Of a stretch of DNA of 12,705 nucleotides, positions 1 to 12,705 are shown piece after piece. Source of the stretch: a virus (lineage: Duplodnaviria; Heunggongvirae; Uroviricota; Caudoviricetes); IMG/VR virus record IMGVR_UViG_2778261165_000008. One strand, given 5' to 3'. The position numbers and the translations under genes are program-made. The notes beneath the pieces are model-generated. The model did no database searches. It was given only the letters and a program-made list of their open reading frames with translations, and was not told the DNA's origin. The stretch's first letter is position 1, and every line of letters begins with the position of its first letter.

Positions 1-73
1 CGCCCTGACTTTCCAGAACCATACGAACTGCCCGTTGACGGACCTCGGGGGAAAAACGTGTATTTTTAGTCAT
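1..73 (-). CDS. IS3-family transposase OrfA, N-terminal fragment (5' partial in window)
   Basis: ATG on the minus strand at 73..71 translates as MTKNTRFSPEVRQRAVRMVLESQG, the start of an IS3-family OrfA as I recall it for IS629. An AGAGG Shine-Dalgarno sits just upstream on the minus strand. The ORF runs off the window edge. Confidence 0.7.
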   Translation of the reverse strand, partial: MTKNTRFSPEVRQRAVRMVLESQG

Positions 74-127
74 CCTGTTTACCTCTTTCTCAGGGAGTTT
101 AGTCTCCAGGATTCCCGGGGCGGTTCA
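1..127 (-). mobile_element. Terminal part of an IS3-family insertion sequence (IS629/IS1203-like); element continues beyond the window start
   Basis: The minus strand read from 127 downward begins TGAACCGCCCCGGGAATCCTGGAGACTAAACTCCCTGAGAAAGAGGTAAACAGG and then ATG, which matches my recollection of the IS629 left inverted repeat and leader. The terminal inverted repeat is at about 103..127. Identification is from memory, not a search. Confidence 0.75.
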
Positions 128-1528
128 CAGAGAGCAGATGCCTTTTCAAAACAATATCAGACCCGGGAGCAGCAGAGAGCTAGTGAACTTGCAAAACTGG
201 AAAAGCTAAAGAATCAGTATTCAAAGGAAGAATATAATAATCTTATCGCTCAAATAAATGAGCGTTATAAAGATCCAAAGCAACCAAAGGCGAAAGGTTA
301 TTCTGATGATGCAGCCCAACGAATGATTGATCATCTGAATCAACAGAATGCGTTACTAAGTTCACAAGCTGAGTTGACCGTTAAATTAAGTTCCTCTGAA
401 CAGGAACTGGTTAAGTGGCGTCAGCGGATTGCCGACCTAGAGTCACGACCATCATCGAAATTAACCCAGGATCAGAAATCGCTTCTCTTACACCGGGAAG
501 AAATAACCGCGTTGATGGAGAAAAATGTTGCGATTGAAAAGAATAACAGGCTAATCAAGGAATCCGCCGAAATAACAGCATGGCGTGATTCATTGCAGGC
601 TTCGATTGATAATCGTCAGCAGGGGTATGATATTCAGATTGCTGGTTATGGGGTTGGCGATAAAAATCAGCAACGCCAGCAGGAATTACTGCGGATTGAA
701 CATGGATATAACAATCAGCGTCTGCAACTTGAACGTGACTATGCAGATAAATCCCGTGGAATGTCAGATCATGTTTTTCAAGAGAAAATGCAGGCTCTGA
801 ATGATGCTCTGGAACGGGAAAAAGAAATTGTCAGACAGAAAAACGAGCAGCTCGATATTCAGGCAGGAGACTGGGTTAGTGGTGCCTCCCAGGGATTCAA
901 TAACTGGCTGGATGACACTAAGGATATCAGTGAGCAGATAAAATCAACCACGACTCAGATGTTTGATGGGATGACCGATGCGCTGGGTGATTTTGTCACG
1001 ACAGGCAAGGCAAATTTTCGTTCTTTCGCTACTTCCGTGATTTCGGATCTTAGTCGAATGGCATTAAAGGCTTCAATTACTGGGATTTTCGACAGCATTA
1101 GTAACAGTTCTTCTGGGGGGATTTTAGGAACTATCGGGAGTGCTATTAGTAAATTTATTCCGAATGCAAAGGGCGGTGTTTATGAGTCTCCGTCATTGAG
1201 CACGTATTCGAACGGTATTTATGATTCCCCGCAATTTTTTGCTTTTGCAAAAGGGGCTGGTGTTTTTGGTGAGGCTGGACCGGAAGCCATTATGCCATTA
1301 ACACGAACTTCCGATGGTTCTCTTGGTGTCAGAGCTATTAATAGTAAAAGTGGTAATGGAGGCGGAGATATTACCTATGCCCCTGTATACCAAATCACTA
1401 TTCAAAATGACGGCCAGAATGGAGAGATTGGCCCTCAGGCAATAAAAGCACTTATGGGGATGGTTGATCAGCGGGTGCAGGGCAATCTGTTAAATATGCG
1501 ACGTGATGGGGGAATATTAAGTGGCTAA
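128..1528 (+). pseudogene. H: Tail tape measure protein (lambda gpH-like), 3' portion of about 466 codons, separated from its 5' part by the IS insertion
   Basis: The open frame 35..1528 has its first 31 codons inside the IS terminus, so they are IS antisense read-through and not gene sequence. From 128 on, the translation is coiled-coil rich and ends with a Gly-rich segment containing GGVYESPSLSTYSNG and FAKGAGVFGEAGPEAIMPL, which I recognise as the tape measure C-terminal region. It sits directly upstream of M as in lambda. Confidence 0.85.
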
Positions 1529-1859
1529 TACGGAAGAATTTCACTGGTTACCAGAGGATGGAATGAAAACAGAAAATAAACCATCGATAAAAACTGTAAG
1601 ATTTGGCGATGGTTATGAGCAACGAAGTCCAAATGGACTTAATCATTCTCTGCGCGTTTTCACCTGTGATTTCAAAGTTGAGGCGAATGAACGTGATTCA
1701 TTTGAAAAATTTTTAGCCCGGCATGAAGGCTATAAATCTTTTTTTTGGCGCCCGCCGGGTATTAACAGAAAAATCAGAGTGGTGTGTCGAACGTGGTCAG
1801 CGACAGAACATATCACCTATACCGATTTTTCGTGTCAGTTTGACGAAGTGGTGATCTGA
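1521..1859 (+). CDS. M: Minor tail protein M (lambda gpM family)
   Basis: 112 aa containing VRFGDGYEQRSPNGLN and FFWRPP, matching lambda gpM as I recall it. The GTG start at 1521 overlaps the H stop; the N-terminal FHW....GM appears to align with lambda FRW....GM, supporting the long start. An alternative ATG at 1563 has a GAGGA Shine-Dalgarno. The stop overlaps the L start (TGATG). Confidence 0.88.
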   Translation: MANTEEFHWLPEDGMKTENKPSIKTVRFGDGYEQRSPNGLNHSLRVFTCDFKVEANERDSFEKFLARHEGYKSFFWRPPGINRKIRVVCRTWSATEHITYTDFSCQFDEVVI

Positions 1860-2557
1860 TGCAGGACATACAACAGGAAACGCTGAATGAATGCATTCGT
1901 GCGGAGCAGTCGGCCAGCGTGGTGCTCTGGGAAATCGACCTGACCGAGGTAGGCGGGGATCGCTACTTTTTCTGTAATGAGCAGAACGAAAAAGGTGAGT
2001 CTGTCACCTGGCAGAGTCGGCAGTATCAGGCCTATCCCATTCAGGGGAGTGGATTTGAGATGAACGGCAAGGGCAGTGCTGCCCGTCCGACACTGACGGT
2101 CTCTAACCTGCACGGCATGATCACCGGGATGGCGGAAGATCTGCAGAGTCTGGTCGGCGGAACGGTGGTCCGGCGTAAGGTTTACGCCCGCTTTCTGGAT
2201 GCGGTGAACTTCGTCAACGGAAACAGCGAAGCCGATCCGGAGCAGGAGGTGATCAGCCGCTGGCGCATCGAGCAGTGCAGCGAACTGAGCGCGGTCAGTG
2301 CCTCTTTTGTACTGTCCACGCCGACTGAAACGGATGGCGCTGTTTTTCCGGGACGTATCATGCTGGCCAACACCTGCACCTGGACCTATCGCGGCGATGA
2401 GTGCGGTTATAGCGGTCCGGCGGTCGCGGATGAATATGACCAGCCGACGTCCGATATCACGAAGGATAAATGCAGCAAATGCCTGAGTGGCTGTAAGTTT
2501 CGCAATAATGTCGGCAACTTTGGCAGCTTCCTTTCCATTAACAAACTTTCGCAGTAA
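1859..2557 (+). CDS. L: Minor tail protein L (lambda gpL family), with C-terminal cysteine cluster
   Basis: 232 aa, the same length as lambda gpL. The ATG overlaps the M stop by 1 nt. The C-terminal region carries Cys residues (CTWTYRGDECGYSG, CSKCLSGCKF) consistent with the known Fe-S cluster of gpL. Confidence 0.9.
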   Translation: MQDIQQETLNECIRAEQSASVVLWEIDLTEVGGDRYFFCNEQNEKGESVTWQSRQYQAYPIQGSGFEMNGKGSAARPTLTVSNLHGMITGMAEDLQSLVGGTVVRRKVYARFLDAVNFVNGNSEADPEQEVISRWRIEQCSELSAVSASFVLSTPTETDGAVFPGRIMLANTCTWTYRGDECGYSGPAVADEYDQPTSDITKDKCSKCLSGCKFRNNVGNFGSFLSINKLSQ

Positions 2558-2562
2558 ATCCC

Positions 2563-3306
2563 ATGACAGAGACAGAATCAGCGATTCTGGCGCACGCCCG
2601 GCGATGTGCGCCAGCGGAGTCGTGCGGCTTCGTGGTGAGAACGCCGGAGGAGGAAAGATATTTTCCCTGCGTGAATATCTCCGGTGAGCCGGAGGAGTAT
2701 TTCCGGATGTCGCCGGAGGACTGGCTGAGTGCAGAAATGCAGGGAGAGATTGTGGCGCTGGTCCACAGCCACCCCGGTGGTCTGCCCTGGCTGAGTGAGG
2801 CCGACCGGCGGCTGCAGGTACAGAGTGATTTGCCGTGGTGGCTGGTCTGCCGGGGGGCGATTCATAAATTCCGCTGTGTGCCGCATCTCACCGGGCGGCG
2901 CTTTGAGCACGGGGTAACGGACTGTTACACGCTGTTCCGGGACGCTTACCATCTGGCGGGAATTGAGATGCCGGATTTTCATCGCGGGGATGACTGGTGG
3001 CGTAACGGTCAGAATCTCTATCTGGATAATCTGGAGGCCACAGGGCTGTATCAGGTGCCGTTGTCAGCGGCGCAGCCGGGCGATGTGCTGCTGTGCTGTT
3101 TTGGTTCATCGGTGCCGAATCATGCCGCCATTTACTGTGGTGACAGCGAGCTGCTGCACCATATTCCTGAACAACTGAGCAAACGAGAGAGGTACACCGA
3201 CAAATGGCAGCGACGCACACACTCCCTCTGGCGTCACCGGGCATGGCACGCATCTGCCTTTACGGGGATTTACAACGATTTGGCCGCCGCATCGACCTTC
3301 GAGTGA
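2563..3306 (+). CDS. K: Tail assembly protein K (JAB/MPN metalloprotease-like N-terminus plus NlpC/P60-like C-terminal domain)
   Basis: 247 aa. ALVHSHPGG with downstream S..D resembles the JAMM motif. A Cys (DCYTLF) and His (NHAAIYCG) pair resembles an NlpC/P60 catalytic core. The 3' end overlaps the I start by 103 nt in a different frame. Confidence 0.82.
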   Translation: MTETESAILAHARRCAPAESCGFVVRTPEEERYFPCVNISGEPEEYFRMSPEDWLSAEMQGEIVALVHSHPGGLPWLSEADRRLQVQSDLPWWLVCRGAIHKFRCVPHLTGRRFEHGVTDCYTLFRDAYHLAGIEMPDFHRGDDWWRNGQNLYLDNLEATGLYQVPLSAAQPGDVLLCCFGSSVPNHAAIYCGDSELLHHIPEQLSKRERYTDKWQRRTHSLWRHRAWHASAFTGIYNDLAAASTFE

Positions 3307-3845
3307 AAACGGGGTCCGAAGCCATCCGGGCGCTGGCCATGCAGATCCCGGCATTTCGTCAGAAACTGAGCGACGGCTGGTACCAGGTACGCATTGCCGG
3401 GCGTGATGCAGGTGAAACCGAATTGTCTGCCCGTCTTAATGAGCCGCTGGAAAATGGTGCCGTGATCCATATCGTGCCGCGTCTGGCAGGAGCCAAAAGT
3501 GGCGGTGTGTTTCAGGCTGTGCTGGGGGCGGCTGTTATGGCGGTTGCTATATGGATGCCGGGGGTAGGAATTATGGCGAGTAATCTGCTGTTTTCTCTCG
3601 GTGCCAGTATGACGCTTGGCGGTGTTGCACAGATGCTGGCCCCTAAACCCAAAACCCCCCGCACACAGACAACGGATAACGGCAAACAGAATACCTATTT
3701 TTCTTCACTGGATAACATGGTTGCTCAGGGCAATGTTCTGCCTGTTCTGTACGGTGAAATGCGTGTGGGGTCGCGGGTGGTTTCTCAGGAGATCAGCACG
3801 GCAGACGAAGGGGACGGTGGTCAGGTTGTGGTGATTGGTCGCTGA
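3204..3845 (+). CDS. I: Tail assembly protein I (lambda gpI family)
   Basis: 213 aa starting MAATHTLPLASPGMARICLYGDLQRFGRRIDLRVKTG, which matches lambda gpI as I recall it. It has a hydrophobic Gly/Ala-rich middle and the conserved C-terminus NGKQNTYFSSLDNMVAQGNVLPVLYGEMRVGSRVVSQEIS. A GAGAGAGG purine-rich stretch lies upstream of the ATG. Confidence 0.9.
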   Translation: MAATHTLPLASPGMARICLYGDLQRFGRRIDLRVKTGSEAIRALAMQIPAFRQKLSDGWYQVRIAGRDAGETELSARLNEPLENGAVIHIVPRLAGAKSGGVFQAVLGAAVMAVAIWMPGVGIMASNLLFSLGASMTLGGVAQMLAPKPKTPRTQTTDNGKQNTYFSSLDNMVAQGNVLPVLYGEMRVGSRVVSQEISTADEGDGGQVVVIGR

Positions 3846-3863
3846 TGCAAAATGTTTTATGTG

Positions 3864-3891
3864 AAACCGCCTCCGGGCGGTTTTGTCGTTT
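3864..3891 (+). terminator. GC-rich hairpin (8-bp stem AAACCGCC / GGCGGTTT, loop TCCG) followed by a T-rich tail, between I and J
   Basis: Inverted repeat read directly from the sequence at 3864..3883, followed by TGTCGTTT. It may be an attenuator or an mRNA-stability element rather than a full terminator. Confidence 0.3.
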
Positions 3892-3905
3892 ATGGAGCAT
3901 GACGA

Positions 3906-6900
3906 ATGGGTAAAGGCAGCAGTAAGGGGCATACCCCGCGCGAAGCGAAAGATAACCTGAAATCCACGCAGCTGTTGAGTGCGATTGATGCCATCAGCGA
4001 AGGGCCGATTGAAGGTCCGGTGGACGGATTAAAAAGCGTGCTGCTGAACAGTACGCCGGTGCTGGACAGTGAGGGGAATACCAATATATCCGGTGTCACG
4101 GTGGTGTTCCGGGCAGGTGAGCAGGAGCAGACACCGCCGGAGGGATTTGAATCCTCCGGCTCCGAGACGGTGCTGGGTACGGAAGTGAAATATGACACGC
4201 CGATCACCCGGACCATCACGTCGGCAAACATCGACCGTCTGCGCTTTACCTTCGGTGTGCAGGCACTGGTGGAAACCACCTCAAAGGGGGACCGGAATCC
4301 GTCGGAAGTCCGCCTGCTGGTTCAGATACAGCGTAACGGTGGCTGGGTGACGGAAAAAGACATCACCATTAAGGGCAAAACCACCTCGCAGTATCTGGCC
4401 TCGGTGGTGGTGGATAACCTGCCGCCGCGCCCGTTTAATATCCGGATGCGCAGGATGACGCCGGACAGCACCACAGACCAGCTGCAGAACAAAACGCTCT
4501 GGTCGTCATACACCGAAATCATCGATGTGAAACAGGGCTACCCGAACACGGCACTGGTCGGCGTGCAGGTGGACTCGGAGCAGTTCGGCAGCCAGCAGGT
4601 GAGCCGTAATTATCATCTGCGCGGGCGTATTCTGCAGGTGCCGTCGAACTATAACCCGCAGACGCGGCAATACAGCGGTATCTGGGACGGAACGTTTAAG
4701 CCAGCATACAGCAACAACATGGCCTGGTGTCTGTGGGATATGCTGACCCATCCGCGCTACGGCATGGGGAAACGTCTTGGTGCGGCGGATGTGGACAAAT
4801 GGGCGCTGTATGTCATCGGCCAGCATTGCGATCAGTCGGTGCCGGACGGTTTTGGCGGCACGGAGCCGCGCATCACCTGTAATGCGTACCTGACCACACA
4901 GCGCAAGGCGTGGGATGTGCTCAGTGATTTCTGCTCTGCGATGCGCTGTATGCCGGTATGGAACGGGCAGACGCTGACGTTCGTGCAGGACCGACCGTCG
5001 GATAAGGTGTGGACCTATAACCGCAGTAATGTGGTGATGCCGGATGATGGTGCGCCGTTCCGCTACAGCTTCAGCGCCCTGAAGGACCGCCATAATGCCG
5101 TTGAGGTGAACTGGATTGACCCGAATAACGGCTGGGAGACGGCGACAGAGCTTGTTGAAGATACGCAGGCCATTCTCCGTTACGGTCGTAACGTCACGAA
5201 AATGGATGCTTTTGGCTGTACCAGCCGGGGGCAGGCACACCGCGCCGGGCTGTGGCTGATTAAAACAGAACTGCTGGAAACGCAGACTGTGGACTTCAGC
5301 GTGGGCGCAGAAGGGCTTCGCCATGTGCCGGGCGATGTCATTGAAATCTGTGATGATGACTATGCGGGTATCAGCATCGGCGGGCGCGTGCTGGCGGTAA
5401 ACAGCCAGACCCGGACGCTGACGCTCGACCGTGAAATCACGCTGCCATCCTCCGGTACCACGCTGATAAGCCTGGTTGACGGAAGTGGCAATCCGGTCAG
5501 CGTGGAGGTTCAGTCCGTCACCGACGGCGTGAAGGTGAAAGTGAGCCGTGTTCCTGACGGTGTTGCTGAATACAGCGTGTGGGGGCTGAAGCTGCCGACG
5601 CTGCGCCAGCGCCTGTTCCGCTGCGTGAGTATCCGTGAGAACGACGACGGCATGTATGCCATCACCGCCGTGCAGCATGTACCGGAAAAAGAAGCCATCG
5701 TGGATAACGGGGCGCACTTTGACGGTGACCAGAGCGGCACGGTGAATGGTGTCACGCCGCCAGCGGTGCAGCACCTGACCGCCGAAGTCACCGCAGACAG
5801 CGGGGAATATCAGGTGCTGGCGCGCTGGGACACGCCGAAGGTGGTGAAGGGTGTGAGCTTCCTGCTCCGTCTGACCGTAACAGCGGATGACGGCAGTGAG
5901 CGGCTGGTCAGCACGGCCCGGACGACGGAAACCACATACCGCTTCAGGCAGCTGGCGCTGGGGCGTTACATGCTGACGGTCCGGGCGGTAAATGCGTGGG
6001 GACAGCAGGGCGATCCGACGTCGGTATCGTTCCGGATTGCCGCCCCGGCAGCGCCGTCGCGGATTGAGCTGACGCCGGGCTATTTTCAGATAACTGCCAC
6101 GCCGCATCTTGCGGTTTATGATCCGACGGTACAGTTTGAGTTCTGGTTCTCGGAAACGCGGATTGCGGATATCAGGCAGGTTGAAACCACAGCCCGCTAT
6201 CTTGGTACGGCGCTGTACTGGATAGCCGCCAGTATCAATATTAAGCCGGGCCATGATTATTATTTTTACGTTCGCAGTGTGAACACAGTCGGCAAATCGG
6301 CATTCGTGGAGGCTGTCGGTCGGGCGAGCGATGATGCGGAAGGTTACCTGGATTTTTTCAAAGGAGAAATCGGGAAAACACATCTGGCCCAGGAGCTGTG
6401 GACGCAGATTGATAACGGTCAGCTTGCGCCTGACCTGGCTGAAATCAGGACGTCCATTACGAATGTCAGCAATGAAATCACGCAGACCGTCAATAAAAAA
6501 CTGGAAAATCAGAGCGCGGCAATCCAGCAGATACAGAAAGTTCAGGTTGATACAAATAATAACCTGAACAGCATGTGGGCCGTGAAACTGCAGCAGATGA
6601 AGGACGGACGCCTTTATATTGCGGGTATCGGAGCCGGTATTGAGAATACGCCAGCAGGTATGCAGAGTCAGGTGCTTCTGGCTGCTGATCGGATTGCGAT
6701 GATTAATCCTGCGAATGGCAACACAAAGCCGATGTTTGTTGGTCAGGGCGATCAGATATTCATGAACGACGTGTTCCTGAAACGCCTGACGGCTCCGACC
6801 ATTACCAGCGGCGGTAATCCTCCTGCATTTTCCATGACACCGGACGGAAAGCTGACCGCTAAAAATGCAGATATCAGTGGCAGTGTGAATGCGAACGCCG

Positions 6901-7385
6901 GGACGCTCAACAACGTTACGATAAATGAGAACTGTCAGATTAAAGGGAAACTGTCAGCCAACCAGATTGAAGGCGATATTGTCAAAACAGTGGGTAAGGC
7001 TTTCCCGCGGGACTCCCGGGCACCGGAGCGGTGGCCATCAGGGACCATTACCGTCAGGATTTATGACGATCAGCCGTTTGACCGGCAGATTGTTATTCCG
7101 GCGGTGGCATTCAGCGGTGCTAAACATGAGAGAGAGCATACTGATATTTACTCCTCATGCCGCCTGATAGTGAAGAAAAATGGTGCTGAAATTTATAACC
7201 GTACCGCGCTGGATAATACGCTGATTTACAGTGGTGTTATTGATATGCCAGCTGGTCACGGCCACATGACGCTGGAGTTTTCGGTGTCAGCATGGCTGGT
7301 AAATGACTGGTATCCCACAGCAAGTATCAGCGATTTGCTGGTTGTGGTGATGAAGAAAGCCACCGCAGGCATCAGTATCAGCTGA
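3906..7385 (+). CDS. J: Tip attachment / host specificity protein J (central tail fibre, lambda gpJ family)
   Basis: 1159 aa. The N-terminus [25 protein letters not shown] and long stretches further in match lambda gpJ as I recall it. The C-terminal roughly 300 aa, the receptor-binding region in lambda, look clearly more divergent from my recollection of lambda J. Confidence 0.95.
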
Positions 7386-7403
7386 ATTTTATAACCCATA
7401 TAC

Positions 7404-7428
7404 GGGCGCCAGAAATGGCGCCTTTTTT
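7404..7428 (+). terminator. Rho-independent terminator downstream of J
   Basis: Palindromic GGCGCC stem (7405..7410 and 7417..7422) with loop AGAAAT, followed by TTTTTT at 7423..7428, 19 nt after the J stop. Confidence 0.6.
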
Positions 7429-7452
7429 ATTGCAGAAAAGCGAGAGGTAATT

Positions 7453-8052
7453 ATGCGTAAAGTTTGTGCAGCCATTTTGTCCGCAGCCATCTGTCTGGCC
7501 GTATCCGGTGCGCCTGCATGGGCGTCTGAGCAGCAGGCCACACTGAGCGCAGGGTATCTTCATGCCCGTACGAACGCTCCCGGCAGCGAAAATCTGAACG
7601 GGATTAACGTGAAATACCGTTATGAGTTTACGGACACGCTGGGGCTGATTACGTCATTCAGTTATGCCAACGCTGAAGATGAGCAAAAAACGCATTACAG
7701 CGATACCCGCTGGCATGAGGATTCCGTGCGTAATCGCTGGTTCAGCGTGATGGCGGGGCCGTCTGTGCGCGTGAATGAATGGTTCAGCGCGTATGCGATG
7801 GCGGGTATGGCTTACAGCCGTGTGTCGACTTTCTCCGGGGATTATATCCGCGTAACTGACAACAAGGGGAAAACGCACGATGTGCTGACCGGAAGTGATG
7901 ACGGTCGCCACAGCAACACGTCTCTGGCGTGGGGAGCTGGCGTGCAGTTTAACCCGACCGAATCCGTGGCCGTTGACGTCGCTTATGAAGGCTCCGGCAG
8001 CGGTGACTGGCGTACCAACAGTTTCATCGTTGGTGTCGGTTATAAATTCTGA
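7453..8052 (+). CDS. lom: Lom/Ail/PagC/OmpX-family outer membrane beta-barrel protein (lambda Lom-like moron)
   Basis: 199 aa with an N-terminal signal peptide (MRKVCAAILSAAICLAVSGAPAWA then SEQ). The body has alternating aromatic/hydrophobic beta-strand patterns and ends in a C-terminal Phe (GVGYKF), typical of outer-membrane barrels. It sits between J and stf as in lambda. A GAGAGG Shine-Dalgarno lies 5 nt upstream. Confidence 0.9.
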   Translation: MRKVCAAILSAAICLAVSGAPAWASEQQATLSAGYLHARTNAPGSENLNGINVKYRYEFTDTLGLITSFSYANAEDEQKTHYSDTRWHEDSVRNRWFSVMAGPSVRVNEWFSAYAMAGMAYSRVSTFSGDYIRVTDNKGKTHDVLTGSDDGRHSNTSLAWGAGVQFNPTESVAVDVAYEGSGSGDWRTNSFIVGVGYKF

Positions 8053-8078
8053 TTAGCCAGGTAACACAGTGTTATGAC

Positions 8079-8106
8079 AGCCCGCCGGTTCAGGCGGGCT
8101 TTTTTG
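8079..8106 (+). terminator. Rho-independent terminator downstream of lom
   Basis: Stem AGCCCGCC (8079..8086) pairing with GGCGGGCT (8093..8100), loop GGTTCA, followed by TTTTT at 8101..8105. Confidence 0.65.
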
Positions 8107-8116
8107 TGGGGGGAAT

Positions 8117-11100
8117 ATGGCAGTACGGATTTCAGGTGTACTGAAAGATGGCGCAGGTAAGCCGATACAAAACTGCACCATTCAGCTAAAGGCCAGGCGC
8201 AACAGCACCACGGTGGTGGTGAACACAGTGGCCTCAGAAAACCCGGATGAAGCCGGGCGTTACACAATGGACGTCGAGTATGGTCAGTACAGCGTCAGTC
8301 TGTTGGTGGAGGGATTCCCGCCGTCACACGCCGGGATTATCACCGTATATGAGGACTCAAAGCCGGGCACACTGAATGATTTCCTCGGTGCAATGACGGA
8401 GGATGATGTCCGGCCAGAGGCACTGCGCCGTTTTGAACTGATGGTGGAAGAGGTGGCGCGTAACGCGTCCGCAGTGGCACAGAACACGGCAGCCGCGAAG
8501 AAGTCAGCCAGTGATGCCAGCACATCTGCCCGTGAGGCGGCAACCCATGCGACTGATGCTGCAGGCTCAGCACGCGCAGCCAGCACGTCAGCCGGACAGG
8601 CCGCGTCGTCGGCTCAGTCAGCGTCTTCCAGCGCAGGAACGGCATCAGCAAAGGCCACTGAAGCATCAAAAAGTGCTGCCGCTGCAGAGTCCTCAAAAAG
8701 CGCGGCGGCCACCAGTGCCGCTGCGGCAAAAACGTCAGAAACGAATGCGGCAGCGTCACAACAATCAGCAGCCACTTCAGCATCCACCGCGACCACGAAA
8801 GCGTCAGAAGCTGCCACCTCAGCCCGGGATGCGTCGGCTTCAAAAGAGGCGGCAAAATCATCAGAAACGAGCGCAGCCTCGAGCGCCAGCAGCGCAGCTT
8901 CCTCGGCAACGGCGACAGCAAATTCTGCGAAGGCGGCAAAAACGTCCGAGACGAACGCCAAGGCTTCTGAAACGGCAGCGGGACAGAGTGCCTCAGCTGC
9001 GGCAGGCTCAAAAACAGCGGCTGCGTCGTCTGCCAGTGCCGCGTCAACAAGTGCCGGGCAGGCCTCAGCCAGTGCCACCGCCGCCGGAAAATCGGCAGAA
9101 AGTGCTGCATCGTCCGCTTCAACAGCCACAACGAAGGCTGGCGAAGCCGCTGTACAGGCCAGCGCAGCAGCGAGGTCTGCTTCCGCAGCGAAGACATCCG
9201 AAACGAATGCGAAAGCGTCGGAAACCCGTGCAGAATCCTCAAAAACGGCAGCCGCATCGTCCGCCAGTTCGGCAGCGTCATCGGCATCATCTGCGTCTGC
9301 TTCAAAAGATGAGGCGACCAGACAGGCGTCAGCAGCGAAGGGCAGCGCCACGACGGCATCCACGAAAGCAACAGAGGCGGCAGGCAGTGCGACGGCAGCA
9401 TCTCAGAGCAAAACTGCTGCTGAATCCGCTGCGACCCGTGCGGAAGCTGCTGCTGATCGTGCTGAAGAGATTGCCGGTGCAGTTGCGATGGAAGACGCAA
9501 GCCTTACAACTAAAGGTGTTGTGAAACTTAGCAGTGCTGTTGATAGCACCAGTGAATCGCTGGCCGCAACGCCAAAAGCAGTTAAAGCAGCCAATGACAA
9601 TGCGAATAGCAGGGTGCCATCTAACCGAAAAGTTAACGGAAAAGCACTGACTGCGGATATAACATTAACGCCGAAAGATATTGGTACTTTAAATTCAGTA
9701 ACGATGTCTTTCTCTGGCGGGGCTGGGTGGTTCAAACTGGCTACGGTTACCATGCCACAAGCGAGTTCCATCGTTTACATCGCATTGATTGGTGGCGCTG
9801 GTTACAACGTCGGTTCCCCACATCAGGCAGGCATTTCAGAACTGGTTCTACGAGCAGGCAATGGAAACCCCAAAGGAATTACCGGGGCTTTGTGGAAGCG
9901 TACAGCCGTCGGATTAACGAATTTCGCCTGGATCAACACATCCGGCGATACATATGATATTTACGTTGAGATTGGCAATTATGCGACTCGTGTAAATATC
10001 CATTGGGATTGTACTGCAAATGCGACAGTTTCTATTTATACATCGCCAACATATTCAGCGAGTAAGCCTTCCAGCGTTACCGATGGTGTTGTTTATACGA
10101 TGTATAGCACACATCAGAAACCGACGCCGTTAGATATTGGAGCACTGCCAACAACCGGAGGAACAGTTTCAGGTCCGTTGTCTGTTACAGGTGGATTAAC
10201 TGGTTCATTGAATGGTAATGCAAGTACAGCCACGAAATTGCAGACGGCAAGATCTATCGGTGGAGTTGTTTTCGACGGTTCTGCAAATATTAACCTTCCA
10301 GGTGTAAACACTACGGGTAATCAGAACACCACTGGTAATGCTGCAACTGCTACAAAACTTCAGACTGCAAGAAAAATATCCGGTGTTCCATTTGATGGTT
10401 CTACTGATATCACTTTAACCGCCGCGCATGTGGCTGCTTTTGCCAGAAGAGCAACGGATGCGTATGCCGATGCGGATGGGGGCGTTCCATGGAATGCCGA
10501 ATCAGGCGCTTACAATGTCACCCGCTCTGGCGACAGCTATATTCTGGTTAACTTCTATACCGGAGTCGGAAGTTGCCGGACCTTGCAGATGAAGGCGCAT
10601 TACAGAAATGGTGGTCTGTTCTACCGTTCTTCAAGAGACGGTTATGGTTTTGAAAGTGGTTGGGCGCAGCTTTACACCTCGGCTCATCCTCCTGCAGAGT
10701 TTTATCCAGTCGGTGCACCAATCCCGTGGCCATCAGATACCGTTCCGTCTGGTTATGCCCTGATGCAGGGGCAGACTTTTGACAAATCTGCCTACCCAAA
10801 ACTTGCAGCCGCTTATCCGTCAGGCGTGATCCCTGATATGCGTGGCTGGACGATTAAGGGCAAACCTGCCAGTGGTCGAGCCGTATTATCTCAGGAACAG
10901 GACGGCATTAAATCGCACACCCACAGCGCCAGCGCATCCAGTACGGATTTGGGGACGAAAAACACATCGTCGTTTGATTACGGCACTAAATCCACGAATA
11001 ACACCGGGGCGCATACCCATAGTGTTAGCGGTACGGCTGCTTCAGCCGGTGCACATACCCATTCGATGACATTTGTTTCAGGTGGTTCCAGTGGTGCTCC

Positions 11101-11344
11101 GGGAAGTGGAGCATCTGATTATTCTAAATACAGTGTTAACACTTCTTCTGCAGGCGCTCATACGCACTCTGTATCGGGTACTGCTGCAAGCGCAGGTGCA
11201 CACGCACATACTGTGGGTATTGGTGCTCATACGCACTCGGTTGCGATTGGCTCACATGGACACACCATCACCGTTAACGCTGCTGGTAACGCGGAAAACA
11301 CCGTCAAAAACATCGCATTTAACTATATTGTGAGGCTTGCATAA
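8117..11344 (+). CDS. stf: Side tail fibre protein (lambda Stf family), mosaic
   Basis: 1075 aa. The N-terminus [38 protein letters not shown] and the C-terminus from GAPIPWPSD to [11 protein letters not shown] match lambda Stf as I recall it. Between them are an Ala/Ser/Thr-rich repeat block, a divergent AT-richer domain and His-rich HxH repeats. The stop overlaps the tfa start (TAATG). Confidence 0.93.
8465..9480 (+). repeat. Ala/Ser/Thr-rich low-complexity coding repeats inside stf, with recurring [13 protein letters not shown]-type units
   Basis: Three similar DNA units lie near 8717..8760, 8933..8975 and 9187..9228. The biased composition produces long stop-free alternate frames on both strands (ORF-track entries 8340..9500, 8511..9524 and 8614..9363). 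Confidence 0.8.
10205..10415 (+). repeat. Two copies of a phage tail-fibre repeat motif (G-N-A[20 protein letters not shown]) inside stf
   Basis: [28 protein letters not shown] and [28 protein letters not shown] are encoded about 120 nt apart, with synonymous divergence at the DNA level. Confidence 0.75.
10911..11270 (+). repeat. His-rich HxH repeat region in the Stf C-terminal domain
   Basis: Repeated [24 protein letters not shown] and SHGHT motifs, including duplicated [17 protein letters not shown] units. Similar HxH motifs are known from distal tail fibre tips, for example in T4 gp37. Confidence 0.7.
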
Positions 11345-11919
11345 TGGTATTCAGAATGAGTGAACAACCACGGACCATAACAATTTATAATCTGCTGGCC
11401 GGAACTAATGAATTTATTGGTGAAGGTGATGCATATATTCCGCCTCATACAGGTCTGCCAGCAAACAGTACCGATATTGCACCGCCAGATATTCCGGCAG
11501 GCTTCGTGGCTGTTTTCAACAGTGATGAGGCATCGTGGCATCTCGTTGAAGATCATCGGGGTAAAACGGTTTATGACGTGGCTTCCGGCGACGCGTTATT
11601 TATTTCTGAACTCGGTCCGTTACCGGAAAATGTTACCTGGTTATCGCCGGAAGGGGAGTTTCAGAAGTGGAACGGCACAGCCTGGGTGAAGGATACGGAA
11701 GCAGAAAAACTGTTCCGGATCCGGGAGGCGGAAGAAACAAAAAACAACCTGATGCAGGTAGCCAGTGAGCATATTGCGCCGCTTCAGGATGCTGCAGATC
11801 TGGAAATTGCAACGGAGGAAGAAATCTCGTTGCTGGAAGCATGGAAAAAGTATCGGGTATTGCTGAACCGTGTTGATACGTCAACTTCACAGGATATTGA
11901 ATGGCCAGCACTGCCGTAG
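11344..11919 (+). CDS. tfa: Tail fibre assembly protein (Tfa family, TfaR/TfaQ-like)
   Basis: 191 aa, with [50 protein letters not shown] near the N-terminus. It closely resembles the E. coli K-12 Rac/Qin Tfa proteins as I recall them and is translationally coupled to stf. Confidence 0.9.
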
Positions 11920-12016
11920 GGTAAAACATATAAATTCTATAATTAGATGTATCTTTCCATTTACGGCAAGGAAGGGGGCTTGGAAGACGTAAAGCATCTC
12001 ACACCGAGATTATTTT

Positions 12017-12520
12017 TTATATGTCAGGTGTCTGAAGTTTTGCTTTGGCTCTTAAAATGGTTTGCCGCGAGGTTTTGAATTCCCGGGCAATGGCACTTAT
12101 ACTTACACCTGACTTAATTCGTTCGAATACCACCTGTTTCTGTTCTTCATTTAACACAGGTGGTCGACCAAAACGTTTCCCTGCGCCGCGGGCTCTTACT
12201 ATCCCGGAATGAGTGCGTTCAAGTAAAAGGTCTCGTTCAAATTCAGCGACTGCTGAAATTACTTGCATCATCATTTTTCCTGTTGGACTGGTCAGGTCAA
12301 TGCCCCCCAATGCTAAGCAATGCACTCTGATACCTGTTTCGGTCAGTTGTTCCACTGTTTTCCTGATATCCATTGCATTACAACCAAGGCGATCCAGTTT
12401 TGTCACAATCAATTGATCACCACATTTCAGGCGAGCAAGCAACCGGTTAAAACCAGGACGCTCACTGGTTGCTGCTGAGCCCTGAGAGATCCCCTCATAA
12501 TTTCCCCAAAGCGTAACCAT
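12017..12520 (-). pseudogene. pin: Site-specific DNA invertase (serine recombinase, Pin/Hin/Gin family), N-terminally truncated and lacking the catalytic Ser segment
   Basis: The 167-aa minus-strand ORF contains [36 protein letters not shown] and a C-terminal helix-turn-helix, all serine recombinase hallmarks. About 25 to 35 N-terminal residues, including the G-Y-x-R-V-S-T catalytic motif, are absent, and the first residues (MVTLWGNY) do not fit the family. The in-frame sequence upstream carries a stop. Confidence 0.8.
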
Positions 12521-12705
12521 GTGTGAATAAATTTTGAGCTAGTAGGGTTGCAGCCACGAGTAAGTCTTCCCTTGTTATTGTGTAGCCAGAATGCCGCAAA
12601 ACTTCCATGCCTAAGCGAACTGTTGAGAGTACGTTTCGATTTCTGACTGTGTTAGCCTGGAAGTGCTTGTCCCAACCTTGTTTCTGAGCATGAACGCCCG
12701 CAAGC
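12490..12705 (-). other. Unassigned stop-free frame running in from the window's 3' edge on the minus strand (C-terminal fragment of an unknown protein, or non-coding junction DNA)
   Basis: A minus-strand frame is open for about 70 codons (…[37 protein letters not shown], then stop) and ends about 30 nt inside the truncated pin ORF in a different frame. I could not assign a family. Confidence 0.2.

Follow-up and report, generated by a model that had tools for sequence, protein, structure and literature searches.

Lambda-type tail tip attachment protein J with a mosaic C-terminal third in a broken Escherichia coli prophage

The tip attachment protein J (gpJ) of lambda-like phages has been described as a conserved body of about 980 amino acids (aa) ending in a C-terminal domain that spans about 150 aa and is hypervariable, for example in the isolated phage Lambda_2G7b (NC_049954; here 2G7b), and in lambda only the last ~150 aa determine receptor recognition. 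LamB is the receptor of lambda and, natively, of phage 21 (phi21), in which mutations in J add the use of OmpC and then of OmpF; OmpC is the receptor of 434, A8, and phi330. All relatives with an experimental receptor assignment use trimeric porins. Natural J C termini have already been used for retargeting lambda particles, and swapped C-terminal modules are a well-documented, ordinary pattern in lambda-like phages, so the phenomenon itself has been described before. Here, we report the modules, junctions, and receptor-binding domain (RBD) of a J protein encoded in a 12,705-nucleotide (nt) stretch of viral DNA (IMG/VR record IMGVR_UViG_2778261165_000008; the window), whose RBD allele is the one carried by 2G7b.

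Materials and methods

The window J was compared by global alignment with lambda gpJ (NC_001416; 1,132 aa), with identity taken over 50-aa windows, and with the J proteins of ten phages. RBDs with at least 95% aa identity over the last ~147 residues were grouped as A-type, a group that includes the window RBD. Short fragments returned by the homologue search, some of them frameshifted, were excluded before structure prediction (AF2). Fiber and shaft domains are named as in Ge & Wang 2024.

Results

The window holds the tail module H'-M-L-K-I-J-lom-stf-tfa of a broken E. coli prophage; insertion sequences (IS) bound this module and cut it short. Gene order around J is that of lambda (tape measure, M, L, K, I, J, then lom, stf, tfa; Pfam matches of neighboring open reading frames), and the tail module DNA is collinear with lambda and with the isolated phage PhiR55_1 (PV340571). 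Because an IS3-family element interrupts the tape-measure gene upstream of J, the J of this genome is probably not now used for infectious particles. Beside the invertase gene, an invertible tail-fiber segment was unconvincing, with only weak inverted repeats of 16 to 23 nt.

With no internal stop in its 1,159 codons, gene J is intact and encodes a tip attachment protein (central tail fiber) of the lambda family (Table 1). Pfam matches (FNIII-A_GpJ, Phage-tail_3, Ig_J, Ig_J_second, Phage_Tail_Tip, and Ig_GpJ_C) were all far above cutoff; the hub, FNIII, and Ig domains follow the lambda order (PF24801, aa 86 to 207; PF13550, aa 330 to 496; PF24421, aa 610 to 714; PF24489, aa 716 to 818; all E < 1e-39), and both the C-terminal fiber (PF09327, aa 872 to 1000) and the Ig-like RBD (PF12421, aa 1029 to 1159) are present. 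The solved lambda gpJ (8iyk_J) matched with phmmer at E = 0 and 2,176 bits, aligned over residues 1 to 836 and 867 to 1158, and shares the order of hub domains, two FNIII domains, helical shaft, beta-prism fiber, and Ig-like RBD. RefSeq E. coli genomes contain 100% identical copies annotated as gpJ. Open reading frames in other frames or antisense, in or near J (4506 to 6383, minus strand, 625 aa; 6331 to 6567; 6925 to 7167), had 0 Pfam matches and were taken as spurious.

Table 1. Coordinates of gene J, its modules and junctions, and the downstream gene lom
Feature	Position (nt)	Strand	Residues (aa)	Remarks
Gene J (tip attachment protein/central tail fiber)	3906..7385	+		1,159 aa, intact; open reading frame list and translation
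Lambda-type body (hub domains and two FNIII/Ig domains)	3906..6365	+	1-820	97% aa identity to lambda
Junction 1, lambda-like to "long shaft" allele	6351..6365	+	816-820	FNIII-2/alpha-helical shaft boundary, ...GYLDFFKG|EIGKTHL...
Divergent module 1, alpha-helical shaft and upper central straight fiber	6366..6680	+	821-925	27 aa longer than lambda (alignment)
Conserved lower central straight fiber	6681..6941	+	926-1012	76-97% aa identity over ten comparison phages
Junction 2, phage 21-like to A-type	about 6750-6812			Within lower fiber
Divergent module 2, Ig-like RBD, A-type allele	6942..7385	+	1013-1159	Pfam Ig_GpJ_C, aa 1029-1159, E = 6e-37
Junction 3	6943-6949			In RBD module
lom (Ail/Lom outer-membrane protein)	7453..8052	+		Pfam Ail_Lom, E = 6e-125; conserved 3' flank of RBD cassette

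Identity to lambda gpJ was 96 to 100% per 50-aa window to about aa 800, 14 to 50% over aa 801 to 925, 86 to 96% over aa 926 to 1000, and 34 to 58% over aa 1001 to 1159; taken by domain, the divergent modules 1 and 2 were 30% and 43% identical and the lower fiber between them 86%. The drop after aa 820 far exceeds chance, because 798 of 820 N-terminal and 169 of 339 C-terminal residues are identical (Fisher p = 1e-81). An earlier sequence-only reading, which described a lambda-like body and a divergent last ~300 aa, was right about the body, and the divergent peptide that it quoted lies at aa 1062 to 1127 (nt 7089 onward). Alignment with lambda gpJ likewise showed a divergent C terminus, with no uniformly high identity. 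The divergence is broken, however, by the conserved lower fiber, and it begins about 60 nt downstream of nt 6300 (aa 799), where that reading had placed it. Nor is all of it receptor region, as had been supposed: the last ~147 aa are the RBD, but the first divergent block is alpha-helical shaft.

Over the body, DNA identity to lambda, phage 21, 2G7b, h434, cdtI, and PhiR55_1 was 93 to 100% (dN/dS, 0.09). At junction 1, informative sites change from 2G7b/lambda-like to phage 21/VT1-Sakai-like; between 2G7b and VT1-Sakai, the maximum chi-square (428) fell at nt 6284 to 6314, and GC content, 0.58 to 0.63 upstream of about nt 6250, drops there to 0.49. Module 1 is 30% identical in aa to 2G7b and h434, as it is to lambda, and 95 to 99% identical to VT1-Sakai, PhiR55_1, phage 21, cdtI, and WGPS6. 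The switch at junction 2 gave chi-square values of 116 to 482 (80 to 586 over all breakpoints). DNA similarity to h434, cdtI, and WGPS6 returns at nt 7226 to 7347 and continues through lom; homology therefore flanks the RBD on both sides, returning downstream in lom and around the stop codon of J.

Every C-terminal module has alleles at 93 to 100% DNA identity among PhiR55_1, VT1-Sakai, 2G7b, Stx2a_WGPS2, phage 21, and cdtI, and all four pairings of a shaft allele with an RBD allele are found: short with A-type (2G7b), short with 434-type (h434), long with A-type (the window and PhiR55_1), and long with 434-type (cdtI and WGPS6). On the strength of these combinations, the junctions in J are read as recombination junctions, as the sequence-only reading had proposed for the single boundary that it saw; the first is sharp against the lambda/2G7b type, and there are two more. 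This recombination is inferred from present-day mosaics, to which we assign neither donor nor direction.

The J genes of PhiR55_1 and the window match from end to end (94.7% nt). VT1-Sakai (Sp15, an O157 prophage) is 91 to 100% identical in DNA between nt 6066 and about 6845, then 93 to 97% through most of the RBD; its body and that of Stx2a_WGPS2, also an O157 prophage, are divergent (58 to 88% nt to the window), and its J is frameshifted. 2G7b differs from the window in joining the A-type RBD to a short, lambda-type shaft. Phage 21 J shares the lambda-type body and the long-shaft allele (95% aa), and most of its sequence up to about nt 6800 is about 93% identical in DNA, but its RBD is 61 to 65% identical in aa and about 50% in DNA, and the variable loops differ.

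The A-type RBD is very common in E. coli. It is present in PhiR55_1 (98% aa identity), 2G7b (96%), VT1-Sakai (95%), and Stx2a_WGPS2 (96%), in 57 phage records at 80% identity or more, and in protein clusters of 1,940 to 4,737 members. The window RBD is not the lambda allele, being about 50% identical to it in DNA, and is 43 to 45% identical in aa to the 434 type. With dN/dS of 0.07 to 0.09, the A-type is under purifying selection; together with a saturated synonymous divergence from the lambda RBD (dS about 1.5), this indicates that the RBD alleles are old and maintained, not decaying.

The predicted C-terminal structure (AF2 monomer; pLDDT, 81.7) is an Ig-like RBD whose best PDB matches are A8 gpJ with and without OmpC (9wcb/9wca) and lambda gpJ with and without LamB (8xck/8xcj), at a modeled TM of about 0.8. 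The gpJ of the A8 chimera, or phi330 J, is the best solved match to the window C terminus (443 bits; Foldseek E = 3e-20 for the window model against A8 gpJ, with 66% identity over fiber and RBD), and its fiber-to-RBD transition stretch is identical to that of the window. Allelic variation and indels cluster in four alternate loops (aa 1036 to 1045, 1070 to 1081, 1099 to 1106, and 1130 to 1139), and the loops at the opposite pole (DDQPFD, NG, and MPAG) are conserved. The variable loops, all four of which differ from those of lambda in length and sequence, correspond to the four bottom loops with which lambda gpJ is described as contacting its receptor and to the OmpC-contacting hairpins modeled for phi330; we predict that they are the receptor-contact loops, taking the receptor-facing pole from strand alternation and not from coordinates.

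Discussion

The window J is an intact lambda-family J in which a lambda-allele body (the hub and FNIII domains) is joined to a mosaic C-terminal third, likely made up of modules swapped among lambdoid phages by homologous recombination. Module 1 is a "long" allele of the alpha-helical shaft and upper fiber, the conserved lower fiber would have supplied the crossover homology for allele exchange, and module 2 is a common non-lambda RBD allele. By analogy, J would be trimeric at the tail tip, and receptor binding would make it trigger DNA ejection: if J works like its solved homologs, the lambda and A8 fibers, the RBD trimer may insert its four variable loops into an outer-membrane porin that is itself trimeric, and RBD opening would then pass via fiber and shaft until the tail tip opens. 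The damage to the surrounding prophage, where IS elements cut the tape-measure and invertase genes at the window ends, could suggest instead that the gene of a defective prophage has decayed by mutation, or that the divergence is an artifact of assembly, and that J is no functional allele. That explanation is extremely improbable and was rejected: the reading frame is intact over all 1,159 codons, 100% identical J DNA occurs in many independent complete genomes, isolated and propagated phages carry the same RBD, Pfam and fold matches are strong, and dN/dS (about 0.08) shows constraint.

From the divergence of the RBD from lambda, the sequence-only reading concluded that the receptor was probably a different outer-membrane protein; the divergence stands, but it is no guide to the receptor. 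The RBDs of phage 21 and lambda are 45% identical and share LamB, and those of A8/phi330 and phage 21 are 80% identical and differ (OmpC versus LamB). Sequence divergence within the RBD family thus does not predict the receptor, and reading the receptor off percent identity was ruled out. Papers on the PhiR phages, Lambda_2G7b, phi330, the gpJ chimeras A8/1A2, and Gifsy-1, and a 255-phage receptor screen, yielded no experimental receptor for an A-type RBD. Homology at 43 to 65% identity suggests that a trimeric porin is the likely class; our first guess within it is OmpC, perhaps certain variants only, with LamB as a second possibility. Binding to OmpC and not LamB, possibly to some OmpC variants only, is a tentative reading to which we give appreciable weight, if less than an even chance. 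Among solved structures, A8 gpJ (9wcb), which binds OmpC, is nearest in both sequence and fold, and the RBDs of 434, A8, and phi330 all use OmpC. The natural gpJ C terminus 1A2 functions on EDL933 OmpC and not on K-12 OmpC, and many O157 prophages and Stx phages carry the A-type allele; the link from A-type to 1A2 is, however, a guess. K-12 never appears among the listed hosts of A-type PhiR phages, which are E. coli C or ECOR13; this is a lead only. Set against OmpC is the RBD identity to A8/phi330 of just 58 to 59%: the window does not carry the A8/phi330-type allele, and the phi330 hairpin ENFNSNNQQS (E953 to S962), which enters the OmpC barrel in the AlphaFold3 model of the phi330 authors, is replaced by the unrelated EREHTD, 5 residues shorter.

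That the A-type RBD still binds LamB as phage 21 does, its divergence being allelic variation in the LamB binding mode or in the LamB variants bound, strikes us as rather unlikely. Phage 21 is the closest relative of the window RBD with an assigned receptor (61% identity), and its LamB-using RBD is about as distant from that of lambda as the window RBD is; but the differences between the window and phage 21 sit in the predicted receptor-contact loops, and a single J mutation already gives phage 21 the use of OmpC, so receptor choice is labile in this clade. It is more doubtful still, and a matter of speculation, that the receptor of the A-type RBD might be some outer-membrane protein other than LamB, OmpC, or OmpF and that, separately, long and short shaft alleles might tune the ease of the tail-opening trigger and be exchanged independently of receptor specificity.

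The significance of these findings beyond annotation is limited. Their practical value lies in a very common E. coli RBD allele for which we found no receptor assignment and for which live carriers exist (PhiR55.1 and 2G7b), and in a map of three junctions that shows safe cut points for building chimeras.

Results

The plus strand of the window is a lambdoid tail module, as read from an ORF list and Pfam matches (see table). J has 1,159 codons without interruption and carries the complete lambda gpJ set of Pfam domains (FNIII-A_GpJ, Phage-tail_3, Ig_J, Ig_J_second, Phage_Tail_Tip, and Ig_GpJ_C), and its sequence matched the solved lambda gpJ structure (E = 0). An antisense ORF within the GC-rich J body (4506-6383, minus strand, 625 aa) was without a Pfam match and was regarded as spurious.

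Features of the window and junctions within J
Feature	Position (nt)	Strand	Basis
Tape-measure protein, C-terminal part	35-1528	+	Pfam Tape_meas_lam_C
M	1521-1859	+	ORF and Pfam
L	1859-2557	+	ORF and Pfam
K	2563-3306	+	Pfam JAB and NlpC/P60
I	3204-3845	+	ORF and Pfam
J	3906-7385	+	ORF and Pfam
Junction 1 (aa 816-820), FNIII-2/shaft boundary	6351-6365	+	Maximum chi-square
Junction 2	6750-6812	+	Maximum chi-square
Junction 3	6943-6949	+	Maximum chi-square
lom	7453-8052	+	ORF and Pfam
Side tail fibre (stf), 1,075 aa	8117-11344	+	ORF and Pfam
Tail-fibre assembly protein (tfa)	11344-11919	+	ORF and Pfam
Serine invertase, N terminus absent	12017-12520	-	Pfam Resolvase match begins at model position 42

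J was globally aligned to lambda gpJ (1,132 aa) and identity was scored per 50-aa window, with domain names following Ge & Wang (2024). Identity was 96-100% from aa 1 to ~800, 14-50% at aa 801-925, 86-96% at aa 926-1000, and 34-58% beyond aa 1000 to the C terminus. The sequence-only reading had described a lambda-like body with a divergent C-terminal region, which the per-domain values bear out: 97% (aa 1-820), then 30% (821-925), 86% (926-1012), and 43% (1013-1159), so that C-terminal identity is not uniformly high (798/820 identical residues N-terminally versus 169/339 C-terminally; Fisher p = 1e-81). It had also called the last ~300 aa divergent; the divergence is real and its start was nearly correct, but the C-terminal third is not a single divergent block. 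Divergence begins with a block that takes in the alpha-helical shaft and the upper part of the beta-prism "central straight fibre" and exceeds lambda's by 27 residues; the conserved block within the C-terminal third is the lower fibre, and the Ig-like receptor-binding domain (RBD) comprises only the last ~147 residues.

J genes of eight phages (lambda, PhiR55_1, phage 21 [phi21], VT1-Sakai, Lambda_2G7b [2G7b], lambda h434 [h434], Stx2a_WGPS2 [WGPS2], and cdtI) were aligned to the window and identity was scored per 120-nt window; WGPS6 and phi330 joined only the per-domain protein comparison. The lambda-type body (nt 3906 to ~6340) was 93-100% identical to lambda, phi21, 2G7b, h434, cdtI, and PhiR55_1, and just 58-88% to VT1-Sakai and WGPS2. 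It is followed by a "long shaft" allele (nt ~6340-6780), 97-100% identical to VT1-Sakai (120-nt windows starting at nt 6306-6546), ~89-96% to phi21, cdtI, and PhiR55_1 from nt 6366, and 28-66% to lambda, 2G7b, and h434. A stretch conserved in all eight aligned phages (nt ~6780-6930) precedes the RBD allele, here named A-type (nt ~6930-7385), which was 93-100% identical to PhiR55_1, VT1-Sakai, 2G7b, and WGPS2 and 36-68% to lambda, phi21, h434, and cdtI.

Junctions were located by scanning the informative sites for maximum chi-square (values, 80 to 586). Short shafts occur with A-type (2G7b) and 434-type (h434) RBDs, as do long shafts (A-type, window and PhiR55_1; 434-type, cdtI and WGPS6). Since all four combinations occur between alleles differing at well over a hundred positions, the modules have recombined; judged from these sequences, the four-gamete pattern can only have arisen in this way. 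The divergence boundary, earlier put forward as a candidate recombination junction, is thus upheld by scan and pattern alike, with at least three junctions. On the 3' side, phages carrying different RBD alleles become similar to the window again at nt 7226-7347 (the last J codons) and stay so through lom, and the RBD is therefore a cassette flanked by homology on both sides.

The shaft (nt 6366-6680, aa 821-925) has at least three allele types, which assort independently of the RBD: short (lambda, 2G7b, and h434), long (window, phi21, cdtI, VT1-Sakai, and WGPS6), and a third (WGPS2 and phi330; ~60% identity). In three E. coli J homologue fragments (P0029, P0031, and P0065; compared with J aa 1069-1140), the first RBD half is A-type and the second is different, and RBD identities to the window grade near-continuously from 99% to about 55%; together these suggest that recombination has also taken place within the RBD, in addition to that at its borders. 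The lom allele is not lambda's: at blastn sensitivity, lambda matches only from ~nt 7925, and lom of h434, cdtI, WGPS6, 2G7b, and others matches over its whole length, including 7453-7925.

Gene decay was rejected as a reading of the J divergence: RBD dN/dS was 0.07-0.09 against PhiR55_1, 2G7b, and WGPS2, which is purifying selection within the A-type group, and synonymous sites were saturated against lambda (dS, ~1.5). These rates indicate RBD alleles that are old and maintained. The A-type RBD is present in the isolated phages PhiR55_1 and 2G7b and in E. coli protein clusters whose members number in the thousands. Several complete E. coli genomes contain DNA 100% identical to nt 127-12481, with J annotated there as gpJ. 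The J of VT1-Sakai (Sp15; L004, 581-4053), the closest match to the shaft module and 95% identical (aa) in the RBD, is frameshifted, with two CDS annotated "truncated by a mutation," whereas the window's J is intact.

The tape-measure gene H, represented in the window by just its ~497 C-terminal codons, adjoins the terminus of an IS3-family element (nt 1-126; 100% identical to multicopy elements annotated "IS3 family transposase"). The minus strand there encodes MTKNTRFSPEVRQRAVRMVLESQG..., presumably an IS629/IS1203-like product. The last 224 nt (12482-12705) are an ISVsa5/IS10-like (IS4-like) element inserted in the invertase gene. Since similarity to other prophages is confined to nt 127-12481, ending exactly at 12481, both genes are interrupted by IS elements; this prophage copy is probably defective, although J is intact. 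GC content is 0.42-0.44 over nt 127-1860 (tape-measure C terminus and M) versus 0.55-0.63 in L-K-I-J. That segment is 99.8% identical to "Salmonella phage SPF_0923," 98.3% to several vB_EcoS-...R phages, and unlike lambda or PhiR55_1, whose similarity begins only at nt 1837-1856; the M/L boundary marks a further module junction. Within stf, nt 8500-9500 are strongly biased in composition (GC, ~0.61; AT skew, 0.3-0.4), and the long ORFs there, one of 386 aa on the minus strand (8340-9500) and one of 337 aa in another plus-strand frame (8511-9524), had no Pfam matches and are probably by-products of repetitive, biased fibre-shaft coding sequence. Around the invertase gene that follows stf-tfa, nt 9500-12500 held no convincing inverted repeats or alternative fibre/tfa segment for an invertible host-range switch, the only inverted repeats being imperfect (16-23 nt).

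Discussion

An AlphaFold2 model of J aa 990-1159 (mean pLDDT, 81.7) is a beta-sandwich, and its best PDB matches are gpJ of A8, a chimera made with a natural C terminus (9wca/9wcb, alone and with EDL933 OmpC; TM, 0.78-0.80; 66% identity), and lambda gpJ (8xck/8xcj, alone and with LamB; TM, 0.80; 48% identity). Across 23 alleles, variability and indels gather in four alternate loops (aa 1036-1045, 1070-1081, 1099-1106, and 1130-1139), and the opposite-pole loops DDQPFD, NG, and MPAG are conserved. The variable loops agree with the four receptor-contacting bottom loops of the lambda RBD and with the hairpins contacting OmpC in the phi330 authors' AlphaFold3 model.

Among relatives with this RBD fold, published work assigns LamB to lambda and, as native receptor, to phage 21, in which a single J mutation adds OmpC and more mutations add OmpF; it assigns OmpC to 434, to phi330, and to the natural C terminus of the A8 chimera. 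The RBDs of A8 and phi330, which share 99% identity, are 80% identical to that of phage 21 and differ from it in receptor, whereas phage 21 and lambda RBDs share a receptor at just 45% identity; percent identity is therefore no predictor of receptor in this family. The window RBD is 61% identical (aa) to phage 21, 58-59% to A8/phi330, 43% to lambda, and 43-45% to the 434 type. In place of the phi330 hairpin ENFNSNNQQS, which points into the OmpC barrel in the authors' model, the window has a different, shorter EREHTD. A literature search found no experimental receptor assignment for the A-type allele. A trimeric porin is its most likely docking partner; we favour OmpC slightly, at less than even odds, regard LamB as nearly as likely, and leave the remaining share to other proteins. 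The different outer-membrane receptor that the sequence-only reading held probable is here a candidate. A second natural C terminus, 1A2, recognises EDL933 OmpC and not K-12 OmpC, O157 prophages are rich in the A-type allele, and K-12 is not among the hosts listed for A-type PhiR phages, which are E. coli C or ECOR13; these points we treat as a lead on the receptor and no more.

The lambda gpJ account is the source of a possible mechanism. By homology, hub domains of the J trimer would seal the tail tip, with the central fibre projecting from the trimer. Bottom loops of the RBD trimer would enter the receptor trimer, and the RBD trimer would then splay open, twisting the beta-prism fibre and flipping the helical shaft; this would release the FNIII domains, open the tip, and let DNA exit. 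All lambda gpJ parts used in triggering are present in the window's J, with a longer shaft.

The mosaic pattern of J is textbook for lambdoid phages and already known. A preprint describes J as conserved across ~980 aa with a hypervariable C-terminal ~150 aa, naming Lambda_2G7b as an example, and the receptor of lambda has been changed earlier by grafting natural J C termini onto it. Here, the confirmed observation is accompanied by a refined anatomy of J.
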